DNA of 64,000 nucleotides from Actinomycetota bacterium. GTDB taxonomy: Bacteria > Actinomycetota > Actinomycetes > S36-B12. The DNA lies in assembly GCA_030684515.1 (NCBI GenBank), contig JAUXVJ010000024.1, positions 39,663-103,662 of the forward strand. Reading direction: 5' to 3'. This document shows, in pieces, positions 1,888-40,985 of this stretch (position 1 is its first letter; each line of letters begins with the position of its first letter). Below the pieces are notes generated by a model that worked only from the letters and a program-made list of their open reading frames with translations, was not told the DNA's origin and did no database searches. The position numbers and the translations under genes are program-made.

Positions 1888-4758
1888 ATGTCCGAACGCG
1901 AATTCAGCTTTGTCGATCGCCACATTGGTCCAGATGAGCCTGCTGTCGAGCACATGCTTGCCACCCTTGGCTACGCCAACCTCGATGCGTTCACCTCTGC
2001 TGTAGTCCCCGAAGTCATCGCCTGGACTGATGCGCTCGAACTACCAGCGGCCGTGGATGAGTTCGCGGTGCTGGCAGAACTGCGCGCGATTGCAGCGCGC
2101 AACTCAGTGAAGACCAGCATGATCGGACTGGGCTATTCCGATACCCATACGCCAGCAGTGATCAGGCGCAATGTCCTTGAGAATCCCGCTTGGTACACGG
2201 CCTATACGCCATACCAGCCTGAGATCAGTCAAGGTCGGCTCGAGGCACTCCTGAACTTCCAGACGATGATCGAGGATCTCACGGCTCTGCCAGTCGCTGG
2301 ATCCTCGCTCTTGGACGAACCCACTGCAGCTGCCGAGGCGATGGCGCTCAGTGTTCGTCAGGGACCCAAAGGAGTGCAGCGCTTTCTCGTGGATGCGGAC
2401 ACGCATCCGCAGACTCTTGCGGTGCTCAACACGCGTGCAGAGCCTATGGATATCGAGTTGATCCAAGCCGATCTCAGTCAGGAGTGGCCAAGCGGACCGT
2501 GGTCGGGCGTGCTGATCAGCTACCCCGGATCGTCCGGAATCGTCCCCGACTTAGGCGCACTGATTGCCAGGGCTCATGATGCCGGAGCGCTTGCAGTTGT
2601 TGCTGCCGATCTGCTGGCGTTGTGTGTGTTCACACCTCCAGGTGAGCTGGGAGCCGACATTGTGATCGGCTCTGCACAGCGTTTTGGCGTGCCGATGGGC
2701 TTCGGTGGACCGCACGCCGGCTATATGTCGGTTCGCGCAGGCCTTGAGCGCTCGCTGCCTGGTCGACTCGTCGGCGTGAGTCTTGATGCTGATGGCAACC
2801 CTGCATATCGACTGGCGTTGCAAACTCGTGAGCAGCACATTCGCCGAGAGAAGGCCACAAGCAATATCTGCACTGCACAGGTGCTGTTGGCGATCATCTC
2901 GGCGATGTATGCCAGCTACCACGGCCCAAGCGGGCTCACGGCCATTGCGCAACGTGTGCATCGAAGCGCCTTGGTGCTGCGCACCGGCTTGCAGCGTTTG
3001 GGGGCCACGACTTCGGAGGCGCCGATTTTCGACACAGTGCAGTGGCAGGTGCCCGGCAAGGCGGATGAGATCTGTGCAGCAATCGCAGACAATGGAGTCA
3101 ACATTCGCGTCGTGGATGCGGACACCTTGTCGGCGTCAACCGACGAACTGACACAGGCTGAGCATGTGCAGATCATTTGGGATGCAACCGCTCAGGCTCT
3201 TGGTCTGAACAGCACTGCAGATCTGACCACTCTTGAGAATGAAGTCGTGAGTTTTGCTACGCGCACCTCATCCTTCCTGCAGCATCCGGTCTTCAATACA
3301 CATCACAGCGAGACGTCGATGATGCGCTACCTGCGCAAACTTGCCGATCGCGACATCGCCCTCGATCGAGCCATGATCCCGCTGGGTTCATGCACGATGA
3401 AGCTGAACGCGGCAACGGAGATGGAGTCCATCACCTGGCCAGAATTTGCCGGATTGCATCCCTTTGCTCCGACCGGCGATGCAGCGGGATCCATTGACTT
3501 GATTCAATCCCTAGAACGGTACCTCGCAGAGATCACTGGTTACGACTACGTCAGCGTGCAGCCCAACGCCGGGTCTCAAGGCGAGTTCGCAGGACTGCTC
3601 GCCATCCGTGCCTATCACCACTCAAATGGTGAGCACGCCCGAAATGTCTGCCTGATTCCCAGCAGCGCTCACGGCACCAATGCCGCAAGTGCAGTGATGG
3701 TCGGCATGCGCGTGGTCGTCGTGAAGTGCGATGAGTACGGAAATGTCGATCTCGATGATCTCAACTTGCGGATAGCCGAACATGGCCCCCAACTCAGCGC
3801 CTTGATGATCACCTATCCATCCACACATGGCGTGTTCGAGACTGCAGTAGCCGACATCTGCGCGCTGGTGCACGACGCGGGTGGCCAGGTCTACGTCGAT
3901 GGCGCAAATCTCAATGCCCTGGTCGGGCTAGCCAAGCCCGGGCGATTTGGGGCTGACGTATCGCATCTGAACCTCCACAAGACTTTCTGCATTCCGCATG
4001 GAGGCGGTGGTCCAGGTGTTGGACCTGTTGCAGTGCGTGAGCACTTGGCGCCATTCCTGCCCTCGCATCCCTTGCGACCAGAAGCCGGACCCTTGGGTCG
4101 AGGCCATCGCGATGGTGGAGTAGGTCCGGTCAGCGGCGCGCCTTGGGGGAGTGCAGGCATTCTGCCAATTCCTTGGGCCTATATCCGAATGATGGGTGCC
4201 GAGGGTTTGAAGCGCGCAACTCAAGTGGCCATATTGTCGGCGAACTACATCGCCAGGCGACTCAACGATCACTATCCCGTCCTGTATACAGGCAGCACCG
4301 GACTTGTGGCGCACGAATGCATTCTGGACGTCCGCCCGATCACTTCGGCGACTGGTGTCACGGTGGACGACATCGCCAAACGACTGATGGATTACGGCTT
4401 TCACTCGCCGACAATGTCTTTCCCGGTGGCAGGAACTCTGATGATTGAACCCACGGAGTCCGAAGATCTGCTCGAAATTGATCGCTTCATTGACGCGATG
4501 ATCTCCATCAAGACGGAAGTCGATGAAGTTGCGGCCGGAATCTGGCCACTTGAGGACAGTCCTTTGCGCAATGCCCCGCATACAGCCGATTGCGTCATCG
4601 GGGATTGGGACCACAGTTACCCGGCCAGGCTTGGCGCCTTTCCCGCTGGAATTGCCCAGGCTGATAAATACTGGCCGCCTGTCCGGCGTATCGATGGCGC
4701 ATATGGCGATCGCAATCTCGTGTGCAGCTGCCCAAGCCCCGCTGAACTCGCAACGTGA
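1888..4758 (+). CDS. gcvP: Glycine dehydrogenase (aminomethyl-transferring), glycine cleavage P protein
   Basis: 956 aa from ATG 1888 ([15 protein letters not shown]), preceded by a GGGGAGAG SD. PLP-lysine region [18 protein letters not shown]. The longer ORF start at 1786 lies inside the riboswitch. Confidence 0.95.
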
Positions 4759-6723: not shown

Positions 6724-6778
6724 CACGAGCCGTGATCTGCCTAAGGCATCAAATGCCCGCGACTGATCACGGCTCGTG
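6724..6778. terminator. Perfect 14-bp inverted repeat between convergent genes (putative bidirectional terminator)
   Basis: CACGAGCCGTGATC (6724-6737) pairs with GATCACGGCTCGTG (6765-6778). The loop holds an inner GGCAT-caa-ATGCC hairpin. No clear U-tract. Confidence 0.45.
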
Positions 6779-6796
6779 AACACTTCTGATGGAAAG

Positions 6797-7693
6797 TTAG
6801 CCGCGTGGATCTCCAGGAATGGCAATGTCCGTGAATCGCATGGGCGCCCCGAAGGTGTCGTCAGGGTCGGCGATCAGGGTGTGCTCGTCCCGTCCGATGA
6901 TGCGAATGCCCTTGGACTCCAAGAATGTGGAGGCCCGATCCAGATCCAGCACCTGCCAAGTGACTGCATGGCACATGTCACCGTTCTTCTCCAGATCGCG
7001 TGCGGCAATCGAATCATCAGTAGTGGGGCGGGAAAGCTCAACGATGGTGTTCTCACCTACCGACACGTAGAGATTGTGCGTGCCGGTCAGTTCAGACATG
7101 TTCTCGTGAATCAAATCGCCGCCAAGTACCTTGGTGAAGAGCTCCTGCGCCTTGTTCAAGTCGGCAACAACGACAGTTGCATAGGCCATCCGCTTGAGCC
7201 CAAGCGGATACTTCTCCCAAGCCAGGGCATCAAAATCAGCGTTGTACCGGGGATCAACAGGCATCACATGCGGGTAGAACTCCAACTGCGTATGGGTGTC
7301 CCGAGGATGGGTGAACAGCGATCCGTCTTCTGGTCGAGTCGGGAGCGCTACACCGCCATCGGTCACTACTCGCACACCGAGTTGAGTCATGGTGTCCCAT
7401 GCGTCCCCTACATCGTCGATATACCAGGCAAGCGAATGCCAGTGACGTCCGAAACGGTTGTAGAAGCGACCAACCGGCATGAGTTCAGAGCCTTCGATGT
7501 CGCTTTCGGCCATGGGCTCAATGATCGCGTCGCCAATCACAATGAGCGATGCGTCGCGCTTCTCAATGGGGGAGTACCCAGCATCCATCAGCCCGCGAGT
7601 CGGATTGAAGACATCGTCATACCAAGCATCAAGCTCAGCGAGATCGTCCGAGATATGAATGATGTGAAAGAGCTTGCCGATGGTGAAGGACAT
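6797..7693 (-). CDS. VOC-family protein (glyoxalase/bleomycin-resistance/extradiol-dioxygenase fold)
   Basis: 298 aa from ATG 7693 (MSFTIGKLFHIIH) with a GAGGAG SD. The upstream part of the 438-aa ORF looks non-coding. Confidence 0.75.
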   Translation of the reverse strand: MSFTIGKLFHIIHISDDLAELDAWYDDVFNPTRGLMDAGYSPIEKRDASLIVIGDAIIEPMAESDIEGSELMPVGRFYNRFGRHWHSLAWYIDDVGDAWDTMTQLGVRVVTDGGVALPTRPEDGSLFTHPRDTHTQLEFYPHVMPVDPRYNADFDALAWEKYPLGLKRMAYATVVVADLNKAQELFTKVLGGDLIHENMSELTGTHNLYVSVGENTIVELSRPTTDDSIAARDLEKNGDMCHAVTWQVLDLDRASTFLESKGIRIIGRDEHTLIADPDDTFGAPMRFTDIAIPGDPRG

Positions 7694-7816
7694 GTCACTC
7701 CTCGAGGGATTGGTGGAGCTGCCATGAGGCAGCACAGTGCAGTTCAGGGTGTGTGCGCACAGTAGGGCTCCTGCAGTCAGCTGGGTGCAGGATTGGGAAA
7801 TCTGCCGTTTCTGCTC

Positions 7817-7849
7817 TTTGCATTTGTGCAAACTTGCAGTGTGTGCAAA
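7817..7849. promoter_or_regulatory. Candidate TetR operator
   Basis: Palindrome TTTGCAtttgTGCAAA (7817-7832) plus a second GTGCAAA copy (7843-7849), 10-40 bp upstream of the tetR ATG in a divergent intergenic region. Confidence 0.45.
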
Positions 7850-7858
7850 TATTAATCC

Positions 7859-10703
<2,845 letters not shown>

Positions 10704-10835: not shown

Positions 10836-12110
10836 ATGCAGCCGGAAGCCGACCACTGGGAGGGCCCGATGACATTGGCTCCCGTGCGTGCGGATGCGGC
10901 ATCAAGCGTGCGCAGCAAGGGCGCCTGGGCGATCGTTGGCGCCACGTTCATCATGCTGGCGTTCAACACCGGATTTGGCTTCTATGCCCTGGGAGCCTTC
11001 AACCGCGGCTACATCGACAGCGTTGGGATGAGCGTCTCTGCCACATCTGCCGGAGCCACCATCTTCTTGCTCGCCGGCGGAATATCCGGTTTGTTTGTCG
11101 CTCGCCTCATGAAACAGGTGGGCATTCGATGGCTCCTACTGGCCGGCACCGTCGGCTCGGCCGCGTGTCTGGCCATGCTCGGAGCTGTCACCCAGGTGTG
11201 GCAGATGTGGGCCGTCTTCCTGATCTTCGGTCTGGTTTCGGCTGGCTTCTCGATGATTCCCACTTCAGCAATGGTGCTTGGAGAATTCGCCGAGGAGTCC
11301 GTCGCCCGACCCATGGCAGTGATGGCCACCGGCTTCTCGGTTGGTGGAGCGGTGCTCGCGCCGATCATCACCGCAGTTGTGCTGAGTTTCGGCATCGCCA
11401 CTGCAGGCATAGCCATGGCCTTGACCTTGCTCGTCGTGATGATTCCGCTTTCGATCGCAGCCACTGGCCATGAACCGCGCATTGGCAGCGCCACATATGT
11501 TGCGACCAAGGTTGAAAAGGCGACTGGCAAGGAACAGCACGGCAGTGGTGGATGGCCGTTCTTTGGGGTCTGCATCGCCTACAGCCTGCTACTCATCACT
11601 CAGGTCTCGGTCGTCATCCATTTGCTCACTTTGGCCACCGAGCGGGGGATTGGCGGCGCCGCCATCACCTTGTCCCTGTTTGCCAGCATGGCCTTTGTTG
11701 GTCGGCTCATCGGGCTGGCGATCATGCCCCGCTTCACTCTCCGATCACTGAGTGTGGTGATGGCCGGCCTACAGGTGCTCGCGCTCTGCATCCTGGCCTT
11801 CTCCGCCGACCTCATGTGGTTGGCGATCGGAGCCGCCCTCATGGGATTGCCATCGGGCAACAATCAAGTGTTCATGCCCCTGTGGCTGCTGAATCTGTTC
11901 GGTGCGGCTCGCTACCCGACAGTCTTTGCTCGTTCGAACCTCATCACCGGATTCAGCGTTGCCCTCGGCCCGCTCTATGTCGGCGTCGTGCATGAGTCCG
12001 CTGGAAACTACCAACTGCCATTCCTGGTGCTGGCTGCCAGTGCCGTCTGCGCGGGGGTGATCATCGCGACTCTGCCGCACAAGGGAGCGACAGATCACGA
12101 AATGTCATAA
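10836..12110 (+). CDS. MFS transporter (12-TM type, substrate unknown)
   Basis: 424 aa with a continuous hydrophobic-segment profile. Start uncertain (alternative ATG at 10869). The stop codon TAA lies inside the island direct repeat. Confidence 0.75.
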   Translation: MQPEADHWEGPMTLAPVRADAASSVRSKGAWAIVGATFIMLAFNTGFGFYALGAFNRGYIDSVGMSVSATSAGATIFLLAGGISGLFVARLMKQVGIRWLLLAGTVGSAACLAMLGAVTQVWQMWAVFLIFGLVSAGFSMIPTSAMVLGEFAEESVARPMAVMATGFSVGGAVLAPIITAVVLSFGIATAGIAMALTLLVVMIPLSIAATGHEPRIGSATYVATKVEKATGKEQHGSGGWPFFGVCIAYSLLLITQVSVVIHLLTLATERGIGGAAITLSLFASMAFVGRLIGLAIMPRFTLRSLSVVMAGLQVLALCILAFSADLMWLAIGAALMGLPSGNNQVFMPLWLLNLFGAARYPTVFARSNLITGFSVALGPLYVGVVHESAGNYQLPFLVLAASAVCAGVIIATLPHKGATDHEMS

Positions 12111-12129
12111 TGTGCATTATCGGCGTTAG
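12108..12129. repeat. Left direct repeat (attL-like) of the 5.1-kb insertion
   Basis: TAATGTGCATTATCGGCGTTAG. The same 18-mer TAATGTGCATTATCGGCG plus TTAG recurs at 17210-17232. Confidence 0.7.
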
Positions 12130-12303
12130 AACCAACTACAGCATTAGTAATGTCATTCGCGTGGTTATCGGCTAACTATCACTTCTGTCACATCAGTCAC
12201 AACGTGGCAAAGGCAACTACATAGCCCATGACCGTCATATTACCTTGAGAAAGCAGATTCAGGCGTCTATAGCCTCAGGTAGAAACCTCAGGTATGAGAA
12301 GTG

Positions 12304-12690
12304 CTACGGGGTACTTGAAGCGCTACGAGGACCACAAATGGCTGAAATGGACTTCACTTTCCCATTCAACTCAGTAGCACTTTGTGACGATAGATAAATC
12401 TCCTCCGATGGAATCACCTGCACATTGGAGAGTTCTCTGACTACCGCCTTCAAATCCTCATTCTGAATACTGGGCCAAACCGCAGACATTCCTATGACCA
12501 TGCGCTGAGCATTGGCAAGATCATCATCTTGGGCATATTGACCAGTACCCAGTTTCGTGTCATGAGCGCCTATCTCATCCCAAGCAGTCCTGATCTGAAT
12601 GCAGTCTGAACTCACTGTGTCACTGCTACACGCAGTCAGAGATAGAATCAATCCAATGCCTACGAACGAACCTAGGTTGCCAATCCTCAT
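12304..12690 (-). CDS. Hypothetical lipoprotein
   Basis: 128 aa. Lipobox LILSLTAC. No recognisable domain. Confidence 0.55.
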   Translation of the reverse strand: MRIGNLGSFVGIGLILSLTACSSDTVSSDCIQIRTAWDEIGAHDTKLGTGQYAQDDDLANAQRMVIGMSAVWPSIQNEDLKAVVRELSNVQVIPSEEIYLSSQSATELNGKVKSISAICGPRSASSTP

Positions 12691-12827
12691 GGAAGAACGC
12701 TAGTCCACCATAGTGTGACTTCCTTTGAACTGCGGCTTGTCCATTGCCCTAAATGCATGCTCTTCGCGCAACGATCATCGCAAGCGAGATCAAGTACACA
12801 CGGTCCAATAGAAGTGTTGATCGTCAT

Positions 12828-13322
12828 TCACAACTCTTCCTTGTGGTCCTCAAGGTCTTCACATACACCCACTCCACGTCGCCATCTATGACCCCAGACA
12901 TCAGTGAAATAGAACTCGATGGGGCCAATGGGACAGTCGGGATGTTGTGGATGTACTGGGCTGCTGGCCGCAAAGTAGTCTGAAATTGTCTGCTTAGGAA
13001 CGACAGTTGAAAGCGTCTTGCAGTCAACATTCGCTTCCGCTAGGTAGACATTGACATCGTCAATTGGATAATCACCAAAGTTGGTGATCTGGAATTTGAA
13101 TCGCCAGACACCGCCAGTCAGGGCTTCATGATCTATCTGAAGCGCTACGGAGCGAGCCATGGCAAGGCGCTGATCCTTTTCAGATTGGCCCTTATCTCGC
13201 TTCCAAAGGAAGACTGTGACTACCACTGCAATGAGGGCCACGAGTGTCCCTAAGGCCTGCACCCATGCCGCCGCTACCAACGCAGCATCAGACACATCGA
13301 TGTGGATACCAATGTCGGGCAA
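12828..13322 (-). CDS. Hypothetical membrane-anchored protein
   Basis: 164 aa. One N-terminal TM (AAWVQALGTLVALIAVVVTVFLW) and an unknown C-terminal domain. Confidence 0.5.
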   Translation of the reverse strand: MPDIGIHIDVSDAALVAAAWVQALGTLVALIAVVVTVFLWKRDKGQSEKDQRLAMARSVALQIDHEALTGGVWRFKFQITNFGDYPIDDVNVYLAEANVDCKTLSTVVPKQTISDYFAASSPVHPQHPDCPIGPIEFYFTDVWGHRWRRGVGVCEDLEDHKEEL

Positions 13323-13330
13323 CCTCGGCC

Positions 13331-13561
13331 CTAGCCCTTGGACGACTTTGGATCTCGGCTCTTTGGATAGGTATTGCGCTCACCAATGGTGCCGTCCATC
13401 TTCTTGATGACGTGCTCCACACCGCGCTCCTGCGCCATTTCACGACCTCTTGCTTGTGCATCAGCCTTAGTTTGGGCGGTATTTGATGCCCGTTCGTTCC
13501 CTTGCGGGCGGTTCTTCCATTGACCGTCTTCGTGGTAAGTCTCGATGTCACCCTTTGCCAT
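13331..13561 (-). CDS. DUF2188-domain protein
   Basis: 76 aa. Pattern MAKGDI..Y..DGQW....G..RAS....TKA.A.A.GREMA.ERGVEH.I...DGTI...NTY is typical of DUF2188. Confidence 0.6.
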   Translation of the reverse strand: MAKGDIETYHEDGQWKNRPQGNERASNTAQTKADAQARGREMAQERGVEHVIKKMDGTIGERNTYPKSRDPKSSKG

Positions 13562-13652
13562 GACTCCCCCTAGGAATGTTGGAACATTGACTTTTTAAGG
13601 TTAGTCGAACGTGTGTTCGAAGTGGAGGCGACACGCCAGTTGGACTGAGAAA

Positions 13653-14123
13653 TCAGTCGTCCTCACGAAATTCATGCTCCTGAACGATCCTCAGGATTTC
13701 GCCCAAGTCATCATGCAGGTAGGAATTTTCAGATATGGCGACATTCTCCCAAGACATCTCATCCTCCAGCGTGCGCAAATCCTTGAGGGTCGGCAGTGCA
13801 GGCATTCCCTTATTTGTGAAGAAGTGCGGTTCTGACCCTCCGATTCGCTCGTGAGGTGGAGCATTGAAGAGTTCCGTTAGCGACTCAAACTCCGTATCGC
13901 AATCTATGTCGAGTAAGCAGAGAAGGTCTTTCCAAGTCAGCCCAAGTGTGGTCTCGCCTTTGTCCGTTAATACCGCAAAGCGTTCAGAACTCACGTAAGC
14001 CAAGGGAAGTCCGAAGTCGTAAACCCTGAAGAATTCTGCCCAATTTGGGTCCGTCGTCTCCTTGTAGGTGGACCACAGGTTGCCAAGAATATGGTTGCTG
14101 ACTTTCTTGCGCGTTGCCGTCAT
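13653..14123 (-). CDS. Hypothetical acidic cytoplasmic protein
   Basis: 156 aa. No recognisable motif. Same strand and spacing as its neighbours. Confidence 0.5.
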   Translation of the reverse strand: MTATRKKVSNHILGNLWSTYKETTDPNWAEFFRVYDFGLPLAYVSSERFAVLTDKGETTLGLTWKDLLCLLDIDCDTEFESLTELFNAPPHERIGGSEPHFFTNKGMPALPTLKDLRTLEDEMSWENVAISENSYLHDDLGEILRIVQEHEFREDD

Positions 14124-14186
14124 CTAGTGGCCCTTGCCTTTTGACTGACCAAGACTTCTGAGAATTGGAATAGCCAATTCAACCTC

Positions 14187-14591
14187 TCAAGTCGCAGGAG
14201 TCTCGACTTCAAGAAATTCGCCACAATGCTTGCATTTCTTGGCTACCGCCAGAATTTGTTCGCCGCAAAATGGGCATTTTTTGTCAGGACTGTTCAGAAC
14301 CAATGAAGGCAACTGATTTGGGGCAAGAGTTGCCAGTCGAGGATCAGGAAGATTGGTGGCTACTTGAGCGGTGTGGACTCCTGCATTGGTATTGCCCTGC
14401 GGCCCCATGATTGCTACTACAACTGCGGCCGGAATGATGAAGAAGAATGCGATCCAGAACCAAGCTCGGTAACTCCTCCCCTTCTTCTCCGCTGCCCTGG
14501 CCACCATCTGTATCAGTTTGATGTAGCCCCAAATTAGAAGCACTGTGATGACAATTCCGATGACAATGCCTATGAAACCTGCTGCGTTCAC
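14187..14591 (-). CDS. Membrane protein with C-terminal zinc ribbon
   Basis: 134 aa with a GTG start. Two N-terminal TM helices, then CPFCG-x13-CKHCG. Confidence 0.55.
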   Translation of the reverse strand: MNAAGFIGIVIGIVITVLLIWGYIKLIQMVARAAEKKGRSYRAWFWIAFFFIIPAAVVVAIMGPQGNTNAGVHTAQVATNLPDPRLATLAPNQLPSLVLNSPDKKCPFCGEQILAVAKKCKHCGEFLEVETPAT

Positions 14592-14622
14592 GTCTCCCCC
14601 AATGCAACCATTTCAAAGCAGT

Positions 14623-14663
14623 GTAGGAACGTTACTACAGACTTTTCGTAGGAGTGTTCCTAC
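14623..14663. promoter_or_regulatory. Candidate XRE operator (GTAGGA half-sites)
   Basis: GTAGGAAC (14623-14630) and GTAGGAgtgtTCCTAC (14648-14663), in the 81-bp divergent spacer between the zinc-ribbon gene and the XRE gene. Confidence 0.5.
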
Positions 14664-14672
14664 CTTGCATGT

Positions 14673-14903
14673 GTGTCATATGAGCCGACAGATGCCGCCA
14701 TCGCGGGGCGTGCTGTGCTTGGCTCAAGGTTGCGATCGCATCGTGAATCAAAAGGTATGACTCAAGAACGATTAGCCCTAGACGCTGGCCTTGATCGCTC
14801 ATTTCTCGTTGACGTTGAGGCTGGTCATCACTCTCTGATGCTTGATCGAGTATTTGACTTGGCACACGCACTAGGTGTCAGTGCTGCCGATCTCGTTAAG
14901 TAA
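14673..14903 (+). CDS. XRE-family helix-turn-helix transcriptional regulator
   Basis: 76 aa with a GTG start. LRSHRESKGMTQERLALDAGLDRSFLVDVEAGHHSLMLDRVFDLAHALGVS is a Cro/C1-type HTH. Confidence 0.8.
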   Translation: MSYEPTDAAIAGRAVLGSRLRSHRESKGMTQERLALDAGLDRSFLVDVEAGHHSLMLDRVFDLAHALGVSAADLVK

Positions 14904-15304
14904 CCCCTACGGCATCAAAGTTTAGAAATTTTCAGGGAGTATTCATACGTATTCCTAGCCATATCAGGCTCCTAGATAGTGCGGCCTTTATTTTGTGAAC
15001 GGATTTACGGGGATCACAATTAGTCAGATCTGACGTTTCCCAAAGCCATCACAGTCACATTTACGCCTACCCGGGATGCAGGTAGGAAGTGATCTCAAGG
15101 GGGATTATGTGGAAGTGGCTTATACGACCGTTGTCTTTAAGTACCCCCGCCTTTGGCGGGATGCTCACTGCGTTCGCATTAATGAAGGATTTTCCTAGTC
15201 AGAAGGAAGGGGGCCCTTTTCTCTGATCATCAAAGAATCAAATTCTGCCGACCGTAGGGAGGCTCACCATGAGCGTCAGCGAATGGTGACTTGCTACATA
15301 TAAG

Positions 15305-15579
15305 TAGAAAAATTGTAGGTACTAGATGCAGTTGTTGGAAAAGACCTAGTACCTACAAGACTGTAAAGGATTTAGACATAGTTTAGGTTTAGTCCAATGG
15401 AACAACACAATTTAAGACTTAGTCACAGAAGTGAATGGAAATCCCAAGATCATCGTTTGTACTCGACTTACGCAGACCCGTGGTGGCAACTTTCACTTGC
15501 GACCCGTACTCCTAGCCCCTTGCTTAAACATTCCAACAACTGCATGCGCATCGCAGCAAAACCATTGCTACTAAAGCCA
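15305..15579 (-). ncRNA. Candidate structured 3' UTR / ncRNA ending in an intrinsic terminator
   Basis: No ORF of 60 aa or more. Contains a perfect 15-nt long-range complementarity (15531-15545 against 15326-15340), a 13-bp terminator hairpin and several local hairpins. Confidence 0.3.
15308..15358 (-). terminator. Rho-independent terminator (minus strand)
   Basis: Perfect 13-bp stem TTGTAGGTACTAG / CTAGTACCTACAA with a 20-nt loop, followed on the minus strand by TTTTT (15312-15308). Confidence 0.6.
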
Positions 15580-15768
15580 TTATACAGGAATTTGAGACAA
15601 AATGTCTGGGCCCAATTCTTGGTTCATGGCTGTCGCGGGGTACTCGAAAGCGTGTCTCTCAACTGCCTCAAGAATGGGTTCGCTTCTCATTAGTGCTTGC
15701 CATCTTGACTCGTGGATCTCTTCTTGAATTGCTAGGAATATTGCTTCCTCGTTTGAAATGGGCTTCAT
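15580..15768 (-). CDS. Small hypothetical protein (62 aa), downstream of the TIR-like gene
   Basis: ORF with helical-looking composition and a weak SD. Preceded by a sigma70-like promoter. Coding status uncertain. Confidence 0.35.
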   Translation of the reverse strand: MKPISNEEAIFLAIQEEIHESRWQALMRSEPILEAVERHAFEYPATAMNQELGPDILSQIPV

Positions 15769-15916
15769 TCACATACCTGACTTCTATCCTTTAGGTCCCT
15801 TCCTAAAGCGACATAACCAAGGGAGACCACGATCTATTGCTGCTCGTAGATTGATTCTCTGAGGAGTGAGGCTACAACGCTCTGAACACTCAGATATCGG
15901 TCAATTCGCTAGTCGA

Positions 15917-15945
15917 ATTATAGCAGAAATATTGTGCACTCACAA
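15917..15945 (-). promoter_or_regulatory. Sigma70-like promoter on the minus strand
   Basis: Minus strand reads TTGTGA - 17 nt - TATAAT (+ strand tcacaa 15940-15945, attata 15917-15922). Confidence 0.4.
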
Positions 15946-15996
15946 TGCCCAGAACACAAGAAAGACCTTTGTTTGCAAGGACTTTCTCCGCCTTCA

Positions 15997-16869
15997 TTAC
16001 ACAATCTTGCTTAGATCGACGTGGATGGTCGCGGCAGCCAATTCCTTCGCAAGTAGGAGTTTCCATACGCCTTCGGAGTCAAGCCCGACGTAGACGATTC
16101 CATCAACATCTGAGGGCTTTTCGATTCCATCATCAAGAAGCACGACAACTCTGGAACGTCCCAAAGCAGCGAAGAAGAAGCCCATTTCGAATACCACGTT
16201 CTGGCGACCGCGAAGCATGAGATCGGAGTCAGTTCCCTTGTGTCGGCCCTCGTCATCAGCAGTCAGAATCACGACTGCAAAGGCCGCTGATCCAGCATGA
16301 TCTTCGAACTTCTCGATCAAAGTTCGACCACGATTGGGCTGTTCATGCAATATCACGACCTCGCGGCCTGTCGCTTGCTCCAGCATTCGAGCAACCTCGA
16401 CCTTGCGCACATCGTCCGAGCCGTGCACTAGAAAGATGGAGCCATCCATCGGGCGCTCAATGGATGTATCCTGCGGTGGATCGAGGGATTCTTTCTCCCA
16501 AAGTGGGAGTCTGTCCGCAATCGACGTCAGTTGCCTGAGGTAGTCGTCAATTTCGCTCCGAAGATCATCGACTCGCTGATTGACCGTTAGTGGCTCTCCG
16601 AAACCCCCTATCGAGAAGTGGGTTCGATACAACTCTGCGCTATTGATGCCTAGCAACTTGGAGATCAATGCTCCATTGAATTCGTGCCATGTCTGGACTT
16701 CATTCTCCAAACGGTCGAGCACAACGCTATTCATCCTTGACGACAACTGACTCTTCAATTGCTCGCCCTTGAGTTTCTGGGCGTCAATTTTTGTCTTCGC
16801 GGATTCAAGCGATCCAATAAGAATGGGGCTCCTAGGTTCATCACTCTTTGAGACAGCCCTCTTAGCCAT
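15997..16869 (-). CDS. TIR-like domain protein (CAP12/Pycsar-effector-type TIR, COG4271) with an N-terminal coiled-coil domain of unknown function
   Basis: 290 aa. The C-terminal ~150 aa read IFLVHGSDD..VEVARMLEQ..GREVVILHEQPNRGRTLIEKFEDH...AFAVVILTADDEG...RGRQNVVFEMGFFFAALGRSRVVVLLDDGIEKPSDVDGIVYV, matching the family pattern including the FE(L/M)G glutamate. No sensor domain or cyclase was recognised. Confidence 0.75.
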   Translation of the reverse strand: MAKRAVSKSDEPRSPILIGSLESAKTKIDAQKLKGEQLKSQLSSRMNSVVLDRLENEVQTWHEFNGALISKLLGINSAELYRTHFSIGGFGEPLTVNQRVDDLRSEIDDYLRQLTSIADRLPLWEKESLDPPQDTSIERPMDGSIFLVHGSDDVRKVEVARMLEQATGREVVILHEQPNRGRTLIEKFEDHAGSAAFAVVILTADDEGRHKGTDSDLMLRGRQNVVFEMGFFFAALGRSRVVVLLDDGIEKPSDVDGIVYVGLDSEGVWKLLLAKELAAATIHVDLSKIV

Positions 16870-16963
16870 CCATGGATCTTGTCAGACCGGATGCACTGTC
16901 ACAGATTTGGACGCCGTGTTGCGGCATGTCTATTTGGGGCTGCTCAATTCAATCGAGCCAGTC

Positions 16964-17170
16964 TCATGCAACCGATTTCATTCGCCTCTTGGCCATCTGT
17001 ATCTTCTTGATGGCCTTTTCGACCTCATCAAGATCCTGACCAGATAGACGAATCTGTAAGTGGCTATCCCCACTTCCCAAATTGAGAATGACAAATAGGT
17101 CAGAGTCCGTGGTCACTCGGCATTGTGTCCAGTTTCGTGTTGCGGTTGCTATTTCTACGTGTGCCCTCAT
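16964..17170 (-). CDS. Small hypothetical protein (68 aa), upstream of the TIR-like gene
   Basis: ATG preceded by AAGGGA. Same strand, 94 nt upstream of the TIR-like gene. No recognisable motif. Confidence 0.4.
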   Translation of the reverse strand: MRAHVEIATATRNWTQCRVTTDSDLFVILNLGSGDSHLQIRLSGQDLDEVEKAIKKIQMAKRRMKSVA

Positions 17171-17209
17171 ACGTCATTTCCCTTGGTATATAAGGCAAAT
17201 GGTCCCTAC

Positions 17210-17232
17210 TAATGTGCATTATCGGCGGTTAG
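17210..17232. repeat. Right direct repeat (attR-like) of the 5.1-kb insertion
   Basis: TAATGTGCATTATCGGCGGTTAG. Differs from the left copy by one extra G. Confidence 0.7.
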
Positions 17233-17262
17233 TTATCAGCCATTCACGCATAGAGACACACC

Positions 17263-18117
17263 TCAGGCTGCCAAGGAACGGTGAATCACGATGTCGCCAC
17301 CACCGGTGCGGGCACGAACTTCAATCTGGGGCTCGGCATTGCCGGGCTGGCTTGCGGACTCAAGGCTGTTGCGCACAAGGCCATAGTGGGCCAGGACGTC
17401 CAGCCAAGCGGCCGTACCTTCGCGAATACCGATATCCACAGAGCCGGCTGCTGTGCGGATATTCGCCGAACCGGCAGACAGTTCAGCGATCCGGATACTT
17501 CCGGCGGCCGAGCCCGCAGTGAGACTTCCATAGGACTGCCCAATTGCGACGTCACCTGACGCTGTGCGGATGTGGGCGCCCTGCTCCAGAACGCCCAAGT
17601 CGATTGGTCCATTGGAGTTCCGGATGACTGCCGAGCCCTTGATCCTGCCCAGACGAATCACGCCGGTCCCCGTGGAGACCTTTGCGTCTCCGACGATGTG
17701 ATCTGCGAACACATCACCCATACCGGACTTCACGATGAGTGAGCCGACATGATCAATGCGAACCTCGCCCATCCCAGTTCTGATCTCAGTGCCAGTGAGT
17801 TGGCCCTCGCAATGCACGGCGCCCATTCCAGTGACGGCTTTGAGCGAGGATCCACTTGGCAGTTGGATCTCCACGATGAGCGCCCCATCGTTCTTGCTGG
17901 TGAATCGGCGCCAAGTCTTGACGGCGCGCACTGTCAATGCCGAACCGGCATATTCGACGGTCGCGTCCCTAGCGGCCTGCACATCCGCAGGCCGAGATTC
18001 GTCTCGGGGATGAACCAGGACCACGGTGTCGAATCGATCGCTGGCTGTGATGGTGATGTCCCCCATTCCTACTTCAATGTTTGCAGAGATCGGATTGGGT
18101 GTCTGGAATGTTGGCAT
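17263..18117 (-). CDS. DUF4097-family beta-strand-repeat protein (putative adhesin-like)
   Basis: 284 aa from ATG 18117 (MPTFQTPNPI) with a GGAAGAGG SD. Repeated G(D/E)(V/I).(I/V) beta-repeat units. Confidence 0.75.
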   Translation of the reverse strand: MPTFQTPNPISANIEVGMGDITITASDRFDTVVLVHPRDESRPADVQAARDATVEYAGSALTVRAVKTWRRFTSKNDGALIVEIQLPSGSSLKAVTGMGAVHCEGQLTGTEIRTGMGEVRIDHVGSLIVKSGMGDVFADHIVGDAKVSTGTGVIRLGRIKGSAVIRNSNGPIDLGVLEQGAHIRTASGDVAIGQSYGSLTAGSAAGSIRIAELSAGSANIRTAAGSVDIGIREGTAAWLDVLAHYGLVRNSLESASQPGNAEPQIEVRARTGGGDIVIHRSLAA

Positions 18118-18152
18118 GCTGCTACCTCTTCCTGGATGTTGATGGTGGGCCA

Positions 18153-18659
18153 CTAGCGGACCCATCCGGTGAAGGACTGTCCGGAACTTGCCGGCGCTAT
18201 CGCTGGGCGAGGTGACCCGCTGCTTGCATTTGTGATCACTCGAACAAGCCAGGCGTTGACCGAAAGGGTCTCGCGGCCGGCTGCCTCCTCAATGCGCTGC
18301 TTGAGCTGTTCAGACAGCCGCAGAGTCACGCGCGCTGGAGTGCCGTCCTCGCTGTCACCTGCCAGAGCCATTTCGCCGGCGGCAGATTCAGAATGTGGAG
18401 ACCACGATTGGGCAGGAGCCGGCACCATCACGGTGAACTCGGGCTCGCGGCCCCGCAATCGCACCTCAACGGAACCTGGCGCCAGATCGATCGTGATCTC
18501 CTGAGCCGCCGCGCTCAGCACCTCCAGCAGCATCAGATGAACGGCCGAATCAATACCGGCGGTCATTCGTTCAGCAACAGCCCGGCCGTCAGGCCCGCTG
18601 AGTTCTGCTGAGGTCAGCAGCTGATCCCGAAGCTCGTCTATGAAGGGTTGAAGATGCAT
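18153..18659 (-). CDS. Hypothetical protein with C-terminal ribbon-helix-helix (Arc/HicB-like) motif
   Basis: 168 aa. C-terminal ARVTLRLSEQLKQRIEEAAGRETLSVNAWLVRVI. Forms an operon with the DUF4097 gene. Confidence 0.6.
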   Translation of the reverse strand: MHLQPFIDELRDQLLTSAELSGPDGRAVAERMTAGIDSAVHLMLLEVLSAAAQEITIDLAPGSVEVRLRGREPEFTVMVPAPAQSWSPHSESAAGEMALAGDSEDGTPARVTLRLSEQLKQRIEEAAGRETLSVNAWLVRVITNASSGSPRPAIAPASSGQSFTGWVR

Positions 18660-18665
18660 GACGTC

Positions 18666-18695
18666 ATTATGACACTATAGTGATGTCATTGTCAA
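18666..18695 (-). promoter_or_regulatory. Promoter for a probably leaderless RHH-DUF4097 mRNA
   Basis: Minus strand reads TTGACA - 18 nt - CATAAT - 6 nt - ATG. Flanked by two TGACGTCA palindromes (18659-18666, 18702-18709) and CACTATAGTG (18673-18682). Confidence 0.45.
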
Positions 18696-18858
18696 CAACA
18701 TTGACGTCACTCCCCCTGTGATATCTCCAATAAGGAGTCTCCATTGGATTCCCTGAGCCTGCAGTCCACGCATCATGGCCTGGGAATGTGCAGCGGCCAG
18801 GCTGCGCGAGCGCGCCCGTGCTGGGTGCAGGATTCTTCTCTTGCGCAGGAGGTCATTG

Positions 18859-19275
18859 CTAGGACTTGGCTCGCACTCGGTTGTTGCGGGGATTGTGCTC
18901 GAGCTCGACTAGCCCCAACTCCTCGAGCAAGGGTGGCAAGTACATGCCAAAGCGACCGCGATAGCCCTTGCGCAATCCATACCAGCCGCCCACTGGATTG
19001 TCGGCTGATCGACCCCACGCCTCAACTGTTCCCTCTGCAGCCTCCTTGTTCTCGTCGGCCGCACCCAAGGCGATCCAATCGCCATGTGCAAGCAGCATCG
19101 CGTGCAGATCCGCAATTGCGCTCGCCTGGTACTTCAAGGTTGTCGATCCGACCACGCACACCAGTTCGGCAGGGTCAACTGAGTCGTCGCGGTACATCGT
19201 GTAGGCAGAAGATCCAGGCGCGGTCGTCAGCTGCCAAGGATCCTGCGCAGTGCCTGTTCCCGTCACGGTGCACAC
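18859..19275 (-). CDS. Conserved actinobacterial hypothetical protein
   Basis: 138 aa. Conserved-looking blocks DPWQLTTAPGSS.YTMYRD and WGRSADNPVGGWYGLRKGYRGRFGMYLPPLLEELGL. Confidence 0.6.
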   Translation of the reverse strand: MCTVTGTGTAQDPWQLTTAPGSSAYTMYRDDSVDPAELVCVVGSTTLKYQASAIADLHAMLLAHGDWIALGAADENKEAAEGTVEAWGRSADNPVGGWYGLRKGYRGRFGMYLPPLLEELGLVELEHNPRNNRVRAKS

Positions 19276-19289
19276 CTCTCCGCAAGGAT

Positions 19290-19718
19290 CTAATCGCGCT
19301 CCCCGACGTTGCGCAGCCTTTTGGTCTGACCGCGGTTCTTCTTGGCACTGATGCGTCGCTCCTGTGAGGCACGTGTTGGTCGTGTTGCGCGCCGCGCCTT
19401 GGGATCTGGAGCTACCGCCGCAGCCATTGTCGACACCAGGCGTTCCTCTGCGAGGCGTCGATTCTGCAACTGTGATCGTTGTTCTGACGCAGCGATTACC
19501 AGGCAGCCGTCAGTCAGGCGAGACGCGAGGCGTCGCACAGCGCGAGTGCGCATGAATGGCGACAGGCTGCGCGAATTCGCAACATCAAAGATCAACTGCA
19601 CTCGCGAATCTGTGGTGTTGACACTCTGCCCTCCCGGGCCCGAAGACCGAGAGAACTTCCAGGACAACTCGGCCCGGGGAATCGAGAGATTCACGTTGAT
19701 GAAGAGTTCGTCGTCCAC
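19290..19718 (-). CDS. arfB: Alternative ribosome-rescue factor ArfB (peptidyl-tRNA hydrolase, GGQ family)
   Basis: 142 aa. GPGGQSVNTTDSRVQL motif and a basic C-terminal tail. Confidence 0.85.
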   Translation of the reverse strand: MDDELFINVNLSIPRAELSWKFSRSSGPGGQSVNTTDSRVQLIFDVANSRSLSPFMRTRAVRRLASRLTDGCLVIAASEQRSQLQNRRLAEERLVSTMAAAVAPDPKARRATRPTRASQERRISAKKNRGQTKRLRNVGERD

Positions 19719-22764: not shown

Positions 22765-23130
22765 ATGAACGAGACTTCAATGCGCGGTTCGCGAATTGGT
22801 GCGCTGAGCTATGAAAACGACCTCCATGTCGTTCCACCTGCAACGACTCCGCTGCAGTACGTATGCCCAGAGGGACACATCACCGTCGTTCCATTCTCGA
22901 TCGAAGCCGAGGATATCCCCCGCACGTGGGGTTGCCGTTGCGGCCGGGAAGCGACAGCTTCCAGTGAGCTGGACAACATGGCCTCAACGGACGTCAAGGA
23001 AGCACGTTATGTGCGCACCCATTGGGACATGCTGCTTGAGCGTCGTTCTATAGCCGAACTGGAAGAACTTCTCAACGAGCGTCTTGCTCTTCTGCACGGA
23101 CACGAGATACCGGTTCTGAAATCTGCTTAG
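22765..23130 (+). CDS. rbpA: RNA polymerase-binding protein RbpA
   Basis: 121 aa. RGSRIGALSYE... and RTHWDMLLERRSIAELEELLNERL are RbpA hallmarks. Confidence 0.9.
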   Translation: MNETSMRGSRIGALSYENDLHVVPPATTPLQYVCPEGHITVVPFSIEAEDIPRTWGCRCGREATASSELDNMASTDVKEARYVRTHWDMLLERRSIAELEELLNERLALLHGHEIPVLKSA

Positions 23131-23579
23131 CCGTCTCGCTCAACTGAGCGGGTATTGAAGGGGTCGTCATTCTCATGAATGACGACCCCTTCAACGATGT
23201 CACCACTGCCACCCCAGCTACGAACACGCCAATTCATTCCACCTGATGGCGTATTGAGATTGGTGAATGGTGCCGCAAGACGTGCTTGCACTCCGGGCAC
23301 GAACAGCAGCAGGGCAGCGATATCGGTCCAAAATCCGGGGATCATGAACAGCACTCCACTCAGCATGCGGAAGGTGATGGCCCGGCTTGGCGCCGCACTC
23401 CTTTTGGCTGCAGCCAGCGCAGCTCGTCCCGCGTTGCGAAAGACCATCCAGCCGATCGGTATGCCGATGAAGGAGATGAACAGTGCCCATCCCCAGCCAA
23501 ACCAAGTGACGAAGAAGAAGAAGGTGACGATCTCCAGCAATGGATAGCCGAAGATCACCAGGCGACGCAGGAAGGCCAT
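23127..23579 (-). CDS. fxsA: FxsA-family membrane protein
   Basis: 150 aa. N-terminal GYPLLEIVTFFFFVTWFGWGWALFISFIGIPIG. Synteny with ppm1/lnt as in mycobacteria. Confidence 0.75.
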   Translation of the reverse strand: MAFLRRLVIFGYPLLEIVTFFFFVTWFGWGWALFISFIGIPIGWMVFRNAGRAALAAAKRSAAPSRAITFRMLSGVLFMIPGFWTDIAALLLFVPGVQARLAAPFTNLNTPSGGMNWRVRSWGGSGDIVEGVVIHENDDPFNTRSVERDG

Positions 23580-24355
23580 TACTTCCCTCGTTCAGCGGCC
23601 GCACGCCTTCGCTGGGCCTTACGTCGCAAGCGCGTCACGCGATCATCGAAACCCCAGACAGTTACCCGCCAAAGCGCTTCAACCACGATGCGCTGACTCA
23701 TCTTGCTGGTGCCTGCCGTGCGTTCCACAAAGGTGATGGGCACCTCTTTGACTCGGAGCTTTCGCTGGGTCGCTCGCCAGGCGAGGTCTACCTGGAAGCA
23801 ATAGCCCTGAGAGGCGACTTCATGGAGATCCAGTTGGCGTAGCGCGTCAGCCCGGAAGGCTCGATAGCCACCGGTGGTGTCATGAATTGGGATCCCCAAG
23901 AGGATGCGCGAATACAGACTGCCGCCACGCGAGAGCAATTCGCGGCCCTTTGACCAATTCTCAACCTCGCCCCCATCAACCCAGCGTGAACCAAGAACCA
24001 GGTCGGCATCTTGCAAGGCATCCAGGAGGTCTGGCAGCTGTTCAGGCTGATGCGAACCGTCAGCGTCCATCTCCACCACGACGTCGAATCCCTCTTGCAG
24101 GGCCCATGCAAAGCCAGCCAGATAGGCAGCGCCGAGGCCTTCCTTGCCAAGCCGGTGCATGACATGGACCTGCGCGTCCAACGAGGCAATCTCTTGGGCG
24201 AGTTCACCGGTGCCATCGGGCGAATTGTCATCCACGATCAGGATTTCCGCGCTCGCAACACTTGCACGAACGCGAGCCACGATGGGCCTGACAGTGTCGA
24301 TCTCATTGAAGGTGGGGATGATGACCAGAATGCGGCCAAGGTCCTCGATGCTCAT
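23579..24355 (-). CDS. ppm1: Polyprenol monophosphomannose synthase (GT2)
   Basis: 258 aa. IIPTFNE...VDDNSPDGT...MDADGSH GT2 motifs. Overlaps lnt by 4 nt. Confidence 0.85.
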   Translation of the reverse strand: MSIEDLGRILVIIPTFNEIDTVRPIVARVRASVASAEILIVDDNSPDGTGELAQEIASLDAQVHVMHRLGKEGLGAAYLAGFAWALQEGFDVVVEMDADGSHQPEQLPDLLDALQDADLVLGSRWVDGGEVENWSKGRELLSRGGSLYSRILLGIPIHDTTGGYRAFRADALRQLDLHEVASQGYCFQVDLAWRATQRKLRVKEVPITFVERTAGTSKMSQRIVVEALWRVTVWGFDDRVTRLRRKAQRRRAAAERGK

Positions 24356-39320: not shown

Positions 39321-40985
39321 TCACAGGTACTGGCCGGTATTGGCAACCGTAGCGATGGAACGACCGGCTTCGTTGCCCTTCTTACCCTGCACCAAGGTAC
39401 GGATGAAGACGATGCGCTCGCCCTTCTTGCCAGAGATTCGGGCCCAGTCATCCGGATTCGTCGTATTGGGAAGGTCCTCATTCTCACGGAACTCATCGAG
39501 GCAGGCATCAATGAGATGCTGCACACGGATGCCCTTCTCGCCAGTGTCGAGGAAGGCCTTGATCGAGGCCTTCTTGGCCCGAGCCACGATGTTCTCAATC
39601 ATGGCTCCGGAGTTGAAATCCTTGAAGTAGAGGATCTCCTTGTCGCCATTGGCGTAGGTGACCTCAAGGAAACGATTCTCGTCGGATTCGGCATAGATCA
39701 TTTCGACTGCGCGTTGGATCATCGCCGCACACGCAGCGGGGATATCGCCATCGTGCGCCGCCACATCTTCTGGGTGGATCGGCAGTTCTGGCACAAAGTA
39801 CTTGCTGAAGATCTCGCGCGCTGCTTCGGCGTCTGGCCGCGCAATCTTGATCTTCACGTCCAAGCGCCCCGGGCGCAGGATCGCTGGATCAATCATGTCC
39901 TCGCGATTGGAGGCGCCAATCACAATGACGTTCTCAAGCCTCTCCACGCCGTCAATCTCACTGAGCAATTGCGGCACGATGGTGTTCTCAACATCGCTGG
40001 ACACACCTGAACCACGGGTGCGGAACAGTGAGTCCATCTCGTCAAAGAACACGATGACCGGCATGCCCTCTGAGGCCTTTTCGCGAGCACGCTGGAAGAC
40101 CAGGCGGATATGTCGTTCTGTCTCACCCACGTACTTGTTGAGCAGTTCAGGACCCTTGATATTCAAGAAGAAGGAGCGACCCTCTTCCGTGCCATTGCGC
40201 TCGGCAACCTTCTTCGCAAGGGAATTGGCCACAGCTTTTGCGATGAGCGTCTTTCCACAACCGGGCGGGCCGTAGAGCAGGATTCCCTTGGGTGCTTTCA
40301 ATTGGTGCTCGGTGTATAGCTCTGCATGCAAGAAGGGCAACTCGACCGCATCCCGGATCGATTCGATCTGCTCCCCCAGGCCGCCAATATCCTCATAACG
40401 AATATCGGGCACTTCTTCGAGCACTAGCTCTTCGACTTCGGATTTGGGGACGCGCTCAGTGACGTAACCCGAGCGGGTGTCCAGCAGAAGTGAATCGCCA
40501 GCGCGAAGTTTGATCGTCAGCAAGGGCTCGGCCAGTCGTACGACCCGCTCATCATCTGATCGACCAACGACAAGGGCGCGAGTTCCATTGTCGATGAGTT
40601 CCTTCAGCATCACTATCTCGCCGACATCCTCAAAGTCGCGAACACCAATGATGGTCATCGAGTCGCTGAGCATGATTTCCTGACCCGGAACCAGTGTGCT
40701 CAGATCAATGCCAGGACCCACAGGCACGTGCATCTTCCTGCCGGCCGAGAGCACATCTGCGGTGTATTCATCAACAGCGCGCAGGAAGGTTCCGTAGCCG
40801 GCAGGCGGCATCGCGAGTCGATCAAGCTCACCCTTGAGATTGACGATCTGCTCGCGAGCTTCGCGCAGGGTGCTGATCAGTCTGGTGTTGTGATCCTTGT
40901 GCGCAATGAGATCACCTCGAAGGCGAGTCAGGGCAGATTCCAAAGCAATGACACGCTCGATTTCGGGCGTATTCGGGTCCGTCAT
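39321..40985 (-). CDS. arc: Proteasome-associated AAA ATPase ARC/Mpa
   Basis: 554 aa. N-terminal coiled coil, Walker A GPPGCGKT, and the C-terminal GQYL proteasome-docking motif. Confidence 0.92.

Follow-up and report, generated by a model that had tools for sequence, protein, structure and literature searches.

Between the convergent genes for an MFS transporter and a DUF4097 protein, in the 64,000-nucleotide stretch of actinobacterial DNA analysed here (hereafter the window; positions 39,663 to 103,662 of the forward strand of contig JAUXVJ010000024.1, assembly GCA_030684515.1, Actinomycetota, S36-B12), lies a 5.1-kb island that is very probably of the class of integrative mobile elements exploiting Xer (IMEX), integrated at the chromosomal dimer-resolution site dif, in all probability by the host recombinases XerC and XerD. 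A sequence-only reading of the same DNA had recognized an insertion bracketed by a direct repeat and, finding no recombinase, had offered decay or mobilization in trans as the explanation. What the repeat is had been overlooked. With its identity as dif, the recombinase in trans acquires a most probable source, XerC/XerD of the host.

The repeat unit, the 18-mer TAATGTGCATTATCGGCG, is at 12108-12125 and again at 17210-17227, a start-to-start distance of 5,102 bp, and these are its only two matches in the window with up to three mismatches allowed (expected number 0.01; two matches in 0 of 100 shuffles). Permitting a one-base indel, of a G, extends the similarity to TTAG, and the exact and mismatch searches bear out the 18/22-bp direct repeat at 12108 and 17210 as first described. 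The DNA between the copies is foreign by composition. Its GC content (12130-17201) is 49.2%, with 58.6% in the left flank and 59.0% in the right, and the sliding profile that had been proposed as a check has, in 200-nt windows, sharp steps from 63.0% to 43.5% across 12100 and from 45.5% to 62.5% across 17200-17300, coincident with the two repeat copies. CTAG is 5-7 times denser inside (3.75/kb) than outside (0.5-0.7/kb). Of the composition first described, the AT-richness and the CTAG excess stand, while flanks of 63-67% GC hold for the immediately adjacent DNA only, the whole flanks being 58-61%.

By its sequence the 18-bp repeat is the core of dif. The dif predicted for Frankia alni is CACGCCGATAATGCACATTATGTCAAGT (PMC3025954), and its reverse complement, ACTTGACATAATGTGCATTATCGGCGTG, includes the 18-mer exactly. 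Scanning public metagenomes for the exact 18-mer yielded at least 120 stretches, plus three viral contigs; among the matches listed (at least 120 metagenome contigs) it is present in a single copy per contig in all but one, in flanks that are otherwise unrelated. In the aligned loci (122 sites) the bases upstream are mostly A.TTGACA, which completes the 11+6+11 layout of a Xer site, and the final three bases are 90-95% conserved, giving the consensus nnTTGACATAA - TGTGCA - TTATCGGCGnn, to be compared with the E. coli dif in reverse complement, ATTTAACATAA - TATACA - TTATGCGCACC (PMC3025954). Assignment of the first arm to XerD and the last to XerC is provisional, being taken from the alignment with the E. 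coli site. The sequence-only reading had itself named, as a finding that would tell against insertion, a common intergenic repeat unrelated to insertion; common the repeat is (at least 120 contigs), unrelated to insertion it is not, dif being an insertion target.

No shared neighbour gene explains the motif, the largest protein cluster accounting for 9 of the 124 loci, and there is no Rfam match for it. A promoter, operator or RNA motif, brought to mind by TTGACA in at least 120 contigs, was considered and set aside: it has no Rfam match, no conserved adjacent gene and no conserved -10 element, and the match to dif makes such a reading unnecessary. The end of an IS200/IS605 insertion sequence or of a miniature inverted-repeat transposable element was ruled out, the island-side DNA of the motif being unrelated between loci.

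As a separate observation, about 15 of the metagenome dif loci share a second motif, GTTGTCCCGTCTCACGGAAGATG, about 45 nt past the XerC arm (L005, L035, L040, L063, L078, L079, L081, L087, L090, L096, L104, L107 and L112 included). Some of these also have a complementary GGACAAC on the XerD side. This motif, which has no Rfam match either, may be a clade-specific feature.

When the window is scanned with the 28-bp pattern just two sites are found, with no further dif-like site on either strand at up to 9 mismatches in 24 positions beyond chance-level matches elsewhere. The sites and their surroundings are as follows (L003, L057 and L127 are relatives dealt with below).

10836-12110, + strand: MFS transporter gene (open reading frame (ORF), Pfam MFS_1); same gene end and dif junction in L003, L057 and L127
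12100-12127, + strand: left site (attL), a complete dif by sequence, AAATGTCATAA / TGTGCA / TTATCGGCGTT (XerD arm, central region, XerC arm), 2 mismatches to the 122-site consensus
12108-12125, + strand: left exact 18-bp copy, made up of the innermost 3 nt from the XerD arm, all of the central region and 9 nt from the XerC arm
12128-17201, no strand: island body, 49% GC and CTAG-rich; absent from L127, L003 and L057
17202-17229, + strand: right site (attR), dif-like, GTCCCTACTAA / TGTGCA / TTATCGGCGGT, 6 mismatches, all in the XerD arm
17263-18117, - strand: DUF4097 gene (Pfam), convergent with the MFS gene, chromosomal right flank; 86% identical orthologue in L127

Both sites are in direct orientation on the + strand and have the identical central region, TGTGCA. 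The left site agrees with the F. alni prediction in reverse complement (PMC3025954), is presumed to be the working dimer-resolution site, and has as its XerD arm the final codons of the MFS gene, GAA ATG TCA TAA, the stop included. In the right site the central region and XerC arm are intact and the XerD arm is unrecognisable, its mismatches falling at positions that are 59-95% conserved among the 122 sites. A right copy with a degenerate XerD arm (6 mismatches) paired with a near-consensus left copy (2 mismatches) is what an IMEX predicts.

Lying where the MFS and DUF4097 genes converge, the dif site marks the replication terminus. In the 60 loci that extend 700 nt or more to either side of the motif, mean GC skew is +0.019 before it and -0.019 after it, with left skew exceeding right skew in 45 (Wilcoxon p = 9e-6), a change of sign at the motif that is as expected for a replication terminus. 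Within the window cumulative G-C reaches its maximum at 11568, a distance of 532 bp from the site, and the genes converge on dif. A side observation here is that rbpA and the adjoining fxsA, ppm1 and lnt (window 22765-24355) are within a few kb of dif, as they likewise are in several unrelated actinobacterial contigs (L008, L020, L026, L033, L084 and L092; in L020 no more than about 350 nt separate rbpA from dif), which suggests conservation across the phylum of rbpA-fxsA-ppm1-lnt synteny near the terminus.

Alignment with relatives, also proposed with the sequence-only reading, has yielded the empty site that it foresaw, a single repeat copy in a spacer of about 50 bp between the two convergent genes. 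The site is in L127, a Logan contig from a different sample found through a search for DUF4097 homologues, where the stop codon of the DUF4097 orthologue (86% identical to that of the window) is followed by 32 nt, a single dif (…AACCGCCGATAATGCACATTATGACATTTCG…) and the 3′ end of the MFS gene, with the island absent. In a five-way alignment L127 agrees on the MFS side with the left junction of the window and on the DUF4097 side with the right one. The empty site and the right copy of the window have the same XerC arm and, after it, the same GGTTAGT, so that what now stands at the right junction is the chromosomal XerC arm; its counterpart on the left (CGGCG-TTAGAAC, with one G fewer) appears to be that brought in with the island. 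Such a distribution of arms is predicted by reciprocal exchange within the shared core. Together, the composition steps at the repeats and the single-copy site of L127 uphold the original claim of a horizontally acquired insertion bounded by the repeat.

A scan of GTDB genomes with the MFS protein gave a single relative, L003. In it and in L057 the junction of the MFS gene with dif is kept to the base, the island is absent and other genes lie beyond. On the XerC side of L003, RibD_C, AHSA1 and ArsR genes (6778-8870) replace the DUF4097/168-aa/DUF6855 block of the window (17233-19311), synteny with the window resuming at its position 19312; that of L057 (1-1129) has cupin and helix-turn-helix genes, and L127 has an extra CAP-domain gene in comparison with the window. 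In all four genomes the XerD side is conserved, and in each the XerC side is different, L127 and the window having DUF4097 in common; no second dif-like site was found in L003, L057 or L127. This variability would suit illegitimate or homologous recombination in a hypervariable terminus, with the island as one state of a variable locus. Nevertheless, what separates the window from L127 is a clean insertion whose limits coincide, to the base, with the Xer core; the outer arm of the right copy bears no relation to the chromosomal arm, so that this copy is no local duplication; and the composition is sharply foreign, all of which makes such an origin improbable.

Integration as an IMEX would have involved a chromosome with one dif, AAATGTCATAA-TGTGCA-TTATCGGCGGT, at the terminus between the MFS and DUF4097 genes, and a circular element whose attP would have been GTCCCTACTAA-TGTGCA-TTATCGGCGTT, in which the XerC arm is good, the central region equals that of dif and an XerD arm cannot be recognised. 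The two molecules would have been joined by exchange of strands at the edges of the central region that they share, the crossover being within 12108-12125. At the left junction this would yield a full and presumably functional dif, with chromosomal XerD arm and element XerC arm, and dimer resolution would be preserved. At the right junction it would yield a crippled site composed of the element arm and the chromosomal XerC arm, and, if the gonococcal genetic island is a guide, the damaged XerD arm would lock the island in place and shield it from FtsK-driven excision. The form of the sites points to XerC and XerD as the probable catalysts, and use of the host enzymes would explain the lack of an integrase. 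Either XerD acted first (with FtsK or an activator from the element) or XerC made a Holliday junction that was resolved by replication, and the sequence fits both orders. That the element has a free circular form, or a way to pass from cell to cell, is hypothetical, and how the DNA reached the cell is likewise surmise: the island may be a decayed remnant, a helper-dependent passenger or taken-up DNA captured by Xer, which is the weakest part of the account.

All nine ORFs of the island were scanned with Pfam, PHROGs and PADLOC. None is an integrase, transposase, relaxase or Rep by Pfam and PHROGs, PADLOC gave no recombinase, and a simple motif search of six-frame translations of the window found no tyrosine-recombinase motif, results in agreement with the earlier statement that the island encodes no recombinase. 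There is no tRNA gene within 39 kb. A different account is that the island inserted itself in the 3′ end of the MFS gene with its own tyrosine or serine integrase, that this gene was later lost (leaving the element decayed or cis-mobilisable), and that the overlap with dif is coincidental. Small islands without their integrase are common, and the closest homologues elsewhere of a TIR-domain protein of the island (below) adjoin Phage_integrase genes. Against it, the repeat covers exactly the dif central region and XerC arm and ends there, a match very unlikely to be due to chance; the 5.1 kb contain no integrase pseudogene or remnant ORF; the degenerate XerD arm is a specific signature of an IMEX; and the marks of an integrase-dependent island are absent, there being no integrase, no tRNA gene and a repeat that is a Xer core. 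A lost integrase is accordingly judged quite improbable. Least credible is a metagenome assembly chimera of two organisms joined at the short repeat. In its favour, the window is from a metagenome-assembled genome (MAG), and in a sister MAG a contig stops within DUF4097, about 130 nt short of the right repeat. Against it, a Logan contig and the window agree in every base of a 21-kb stretch that includes both junctions, 18 bp is below usual assembly k-mers, both junctions would have to be chimeric at one motif, and the strand bias of the genes in the island is that of the replichore around it. The sister contig, L128 (GCA_030683335.1, JAUXQR010000436.1, 1105 nt), has a 100% identical DUF4097 gene, and its break close to the right dif-like site could reflect presence/absence variation of the island in the population.

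Several points weigh against regarding the island as an IMEX. Pfam and PHROGs identified no Rep, Zot, relaxase, type IV secretion system or capsid genes, and with them no free replicating or transferring form; nor did any ORF match the XafT-like DUF3653 at E <= 0.01 (Pfam). The xerC, xerD and ftsK genes are outside the window, their presence being assumed from their generality in Actinobacteria (PMC3025954), and dif was counted within one 64-kb window rather than genome-wide. According to Kono et al. (PMC3025954) no actinobacterial dif has been experimentally confirmed, all being computational predictions. No second copy of the island was found and no family of such elements was recovered, and mobility rests on one presence/absence comparison, between genomes about 86% identical in a flanking protein.

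The features of the island, in order from the left site, are these.

12304-12690, - strand: 128-aa ORF with a lipoprotein-like N-terminus, no family match
12828-13322, - strand: 164-aa ORF with a hydrophobic segment, no family match
13331-13561, - strand: 76-aa DUF2188 protein (Pfam E 7e-19), PADLOC candidate PDC-S16 (E 3e-17)
13653-14123, - strand: 156-aa orphan ORF, no homologue
14187-14591, - strand: 134-aa protein, zinc ribbon at the C-terminus and a membrane segment (phrog_8436 E 2.6e-14; Pfam Zn_Ribbon_1, under the curated cut-off)
14673-14903, + strand: 76-aa XRE-type helix-turn-helix regulator, divergent from the 134-aa gene (Pfam HTH_3 E 4e-11; PADLOC 'control protein' E 2e-11)
14904-15579, no strand: ORF-free stretch, lower in GC than the rest of the island (38-50%; minimum 38.5%), no Rfam match
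15580-15768, - strand: 62-aa ORF, no family match
15997-16869, - strand: 290-aa protein with a C-terminal CAP12/Pycsar-type TIR domain (Pfam PF10137 E 4e-33), PADLOC candidate for single-gene defence PDC-S35 (E 1.9e-65)
16964-17170, - strand: 68-aa ORF adjoining the attP-derived arm, no family match (PDB: weak matches to designed coiled coils only)

The content reported at first, orphan ORFs, an XRE regulator and a TIR-like effector, was accurate, and the family searches add the DUF2188 and zinc-ribbon proteins. Matched in the PDB by Cap12 and PycTIR (E 8e-6 to 3e-4), the TIR protein is likely, from its domain matches, to be a candidate anti-phage effector and the selective cargo. Pfam found no cyclase in the island and the protein matches the effector domain and PDC-S35 only; with no adjacent cyclase this is not a cyclic-oligonucleotide-based anti-phage signalling (CBASS) or Pycsar system. 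The two closest homologues examined (47-51% identical) are near Phage_integrase genes in other genomes, in unrelated islands, and so the TIR protein travels on different vehicles.

For the 156-aa ORF a search of 5.8 billion proteins returned itself only, the PDB gave no match, and an AlphaFold2 single-sequence model (pLDDT 36.8) was unusable; PDB sequence searches with the orphan ORFs were empty or trivial. Promoter and terminator scans gave results at chance level. The ORF-free stretch contains perfect inverted repeats, with 13-nt arms at 15313-15325/15346-15358 and 15-nt arms at 15326-15340/15531-15545, and could be a regulatory region or a former origin.

Among known elements, the review by Castillo et al. 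(PMC5357621) describes the attP of TLCphi and the dif-like site of the gonococcal island as conserved in XerC arm and central region and divergent in XerD arm, the same architecture is given in PMC6744903, and Kono et al. (PMC3025954) report phage dif-like sites with a considerably degenerate XerD arm. The island shares with IMEXs insertion at dif, a direct dif and dif-like site with common central region, the lack of an integrase and a relative with an empty site. Its likeness to the gonococcal genetic island of Neisseria is in its position between a host dif and a dif-like site whose XerD arm is degenerate, in having no integrase and no XafT-like factor, and in stable integration (PMC5357621, PMC6744903). 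They differ in that the gonococcal island is 57 kb, has a type IV secretion system and a beta-proteobacterial host, whereas the present one is 5.1 kb without transfer genes, and in that Xer dependence has been experimentally tested for the former and is a prediction from sequence for the latter. TLCphi, at about 4.7 kb also small, has a double-stranded attP that is highly similar to dif in the XerC arm and central region but highly divergent in the XerD arm, and regenerates a functional dif. It resides in another host phylum and encodes both replication functions and XafT (DUF3653), which activates XerD, whereas Pfam finds neither DUF3653 nor Rep in the island, which in its lack of a DUF3653/XafT-like protein is nearer to the gonococcal island than to TLCphi.

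CTXphi and VGJphi also integrate at dif through host XerCD with no integrase of their own (PMC5357621). The attP of CTXphi is a folded single strand formed from two inverted dif-like sites, and since there is no inverted second site in or near the island an attP of that type is excluded. The attP of VGJphi differs from dif in the central region, and the identical central region of the island argues against the VGJphi type. Both phages are inoviruses with Rep and Zot genes, which the island lacks. EludIMEX-1 of Enterobacter ludwigii is, like the island, a low-GC cargo island with XerC/XerD sites conserved mainly in the XerC arm, found by comparative genomics only (PMC5357621). It differs in being 29 kb, in carrying a carbapenemase gene and in its gamma-proteobacterial host. 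The pdif modules of Acinetobacter plasmids are also described as cargo bounded by Xer-type sites without a recombinase of their own. They are plasmid-borne with sites alternately inverted, in contrast to the two direct repeats at a chromosomal terminus that bound the island. The IMEXs in the searchable literature are all from Proteobacteria (Vibrio, Neisseria, Enterobacter, Xanthomonas and Haemophilus), and a non-exhaustive search of it found none reported in Actinomycetota; the mechanism is already well described, and what is new is its setting in a phylum for which no IMEX report was found.

A wider and rather doubtful proposal is that the XerC side of dif in Actinomycetota is a general capture point for recombinase-less cargo, defence genes included. 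The hints are the four XerC-side states of the relatives, a non-significant trend to low GC, and an element at dif in the viral contig L125. GC is lower on the XerC side in 27 of 42, 17 of 21 and 9 of 11 loci (Wilcoxon p 0.08-0.12), a difference that is not established, and among the other 122 dif loci, most of them short, no second clean IMEX was found. Were there such a capture point, what differs on the XerC side among the four close relatives would be what decay has left of repeated Xer-mediated gain and replacement, and the island may be the first caught with both junctions intact. One of its orphan ORFs could be a Xer activation factor unrelated to XafT, enabling XerD on a site that it cannot bind.

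Other arrangements of dif-like sites were seen in passing. Locus L064 (1035-1111) has an inverted dif-like pair 49 nt apart, ATCTGACATAA TGTGCA TTATCGGCGCA and on the opposite strand ACCTGACATAA GAGGCA TTATCGGCAGG, and L082 has an inverted weak dif-like site. In L125 (1017-4731), an IMG/VR contig with a 971-nt overlap at 100% identity with another, L126, a small element of phage-like character adjoins a dif of full consensus, TTGACATAA TGTGCA TTATCGGCG (4704-4731), in DNA of 65-72% GC. One ORF of the element matches phrog_20922 'head morphogenesis' (E 9.5e-36) and the next phrog_11698 (E 5.7e-62) and, just under the cut-off, the rolling-circle Rep family Rep_1 of Pfam (E 7.6e-8); the element, whose other end was not found, is probably a second, unrelated Xer exploiter in an actinobacterium. 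A viral contig of 72% GC, L124 (4258-5083; IMGVR_UViG_3300043496_000290), has the exact 18-mer with an XerD arm that departs from the consensus (aagtaacgcg-TAATG...). An ORF of 253 aa resembling serine recombinases/invertases (phrog_95, E 1.5e-55) is about 50 nt away, and the site could be of attP or attR type, or unrelated.

For Actinomycetota, in which island boundaries are hard to define, the consensus motif offers a terminus marker in many soil members of the phylum, and a second copy in which the XerD arm is ruined is the sign of an IMEX. An actinobacterial IMEX would extend the exploitation of Xer to a second major phylum, and cargo such as the TIR protein would make dif a place in which to seek defence genes.

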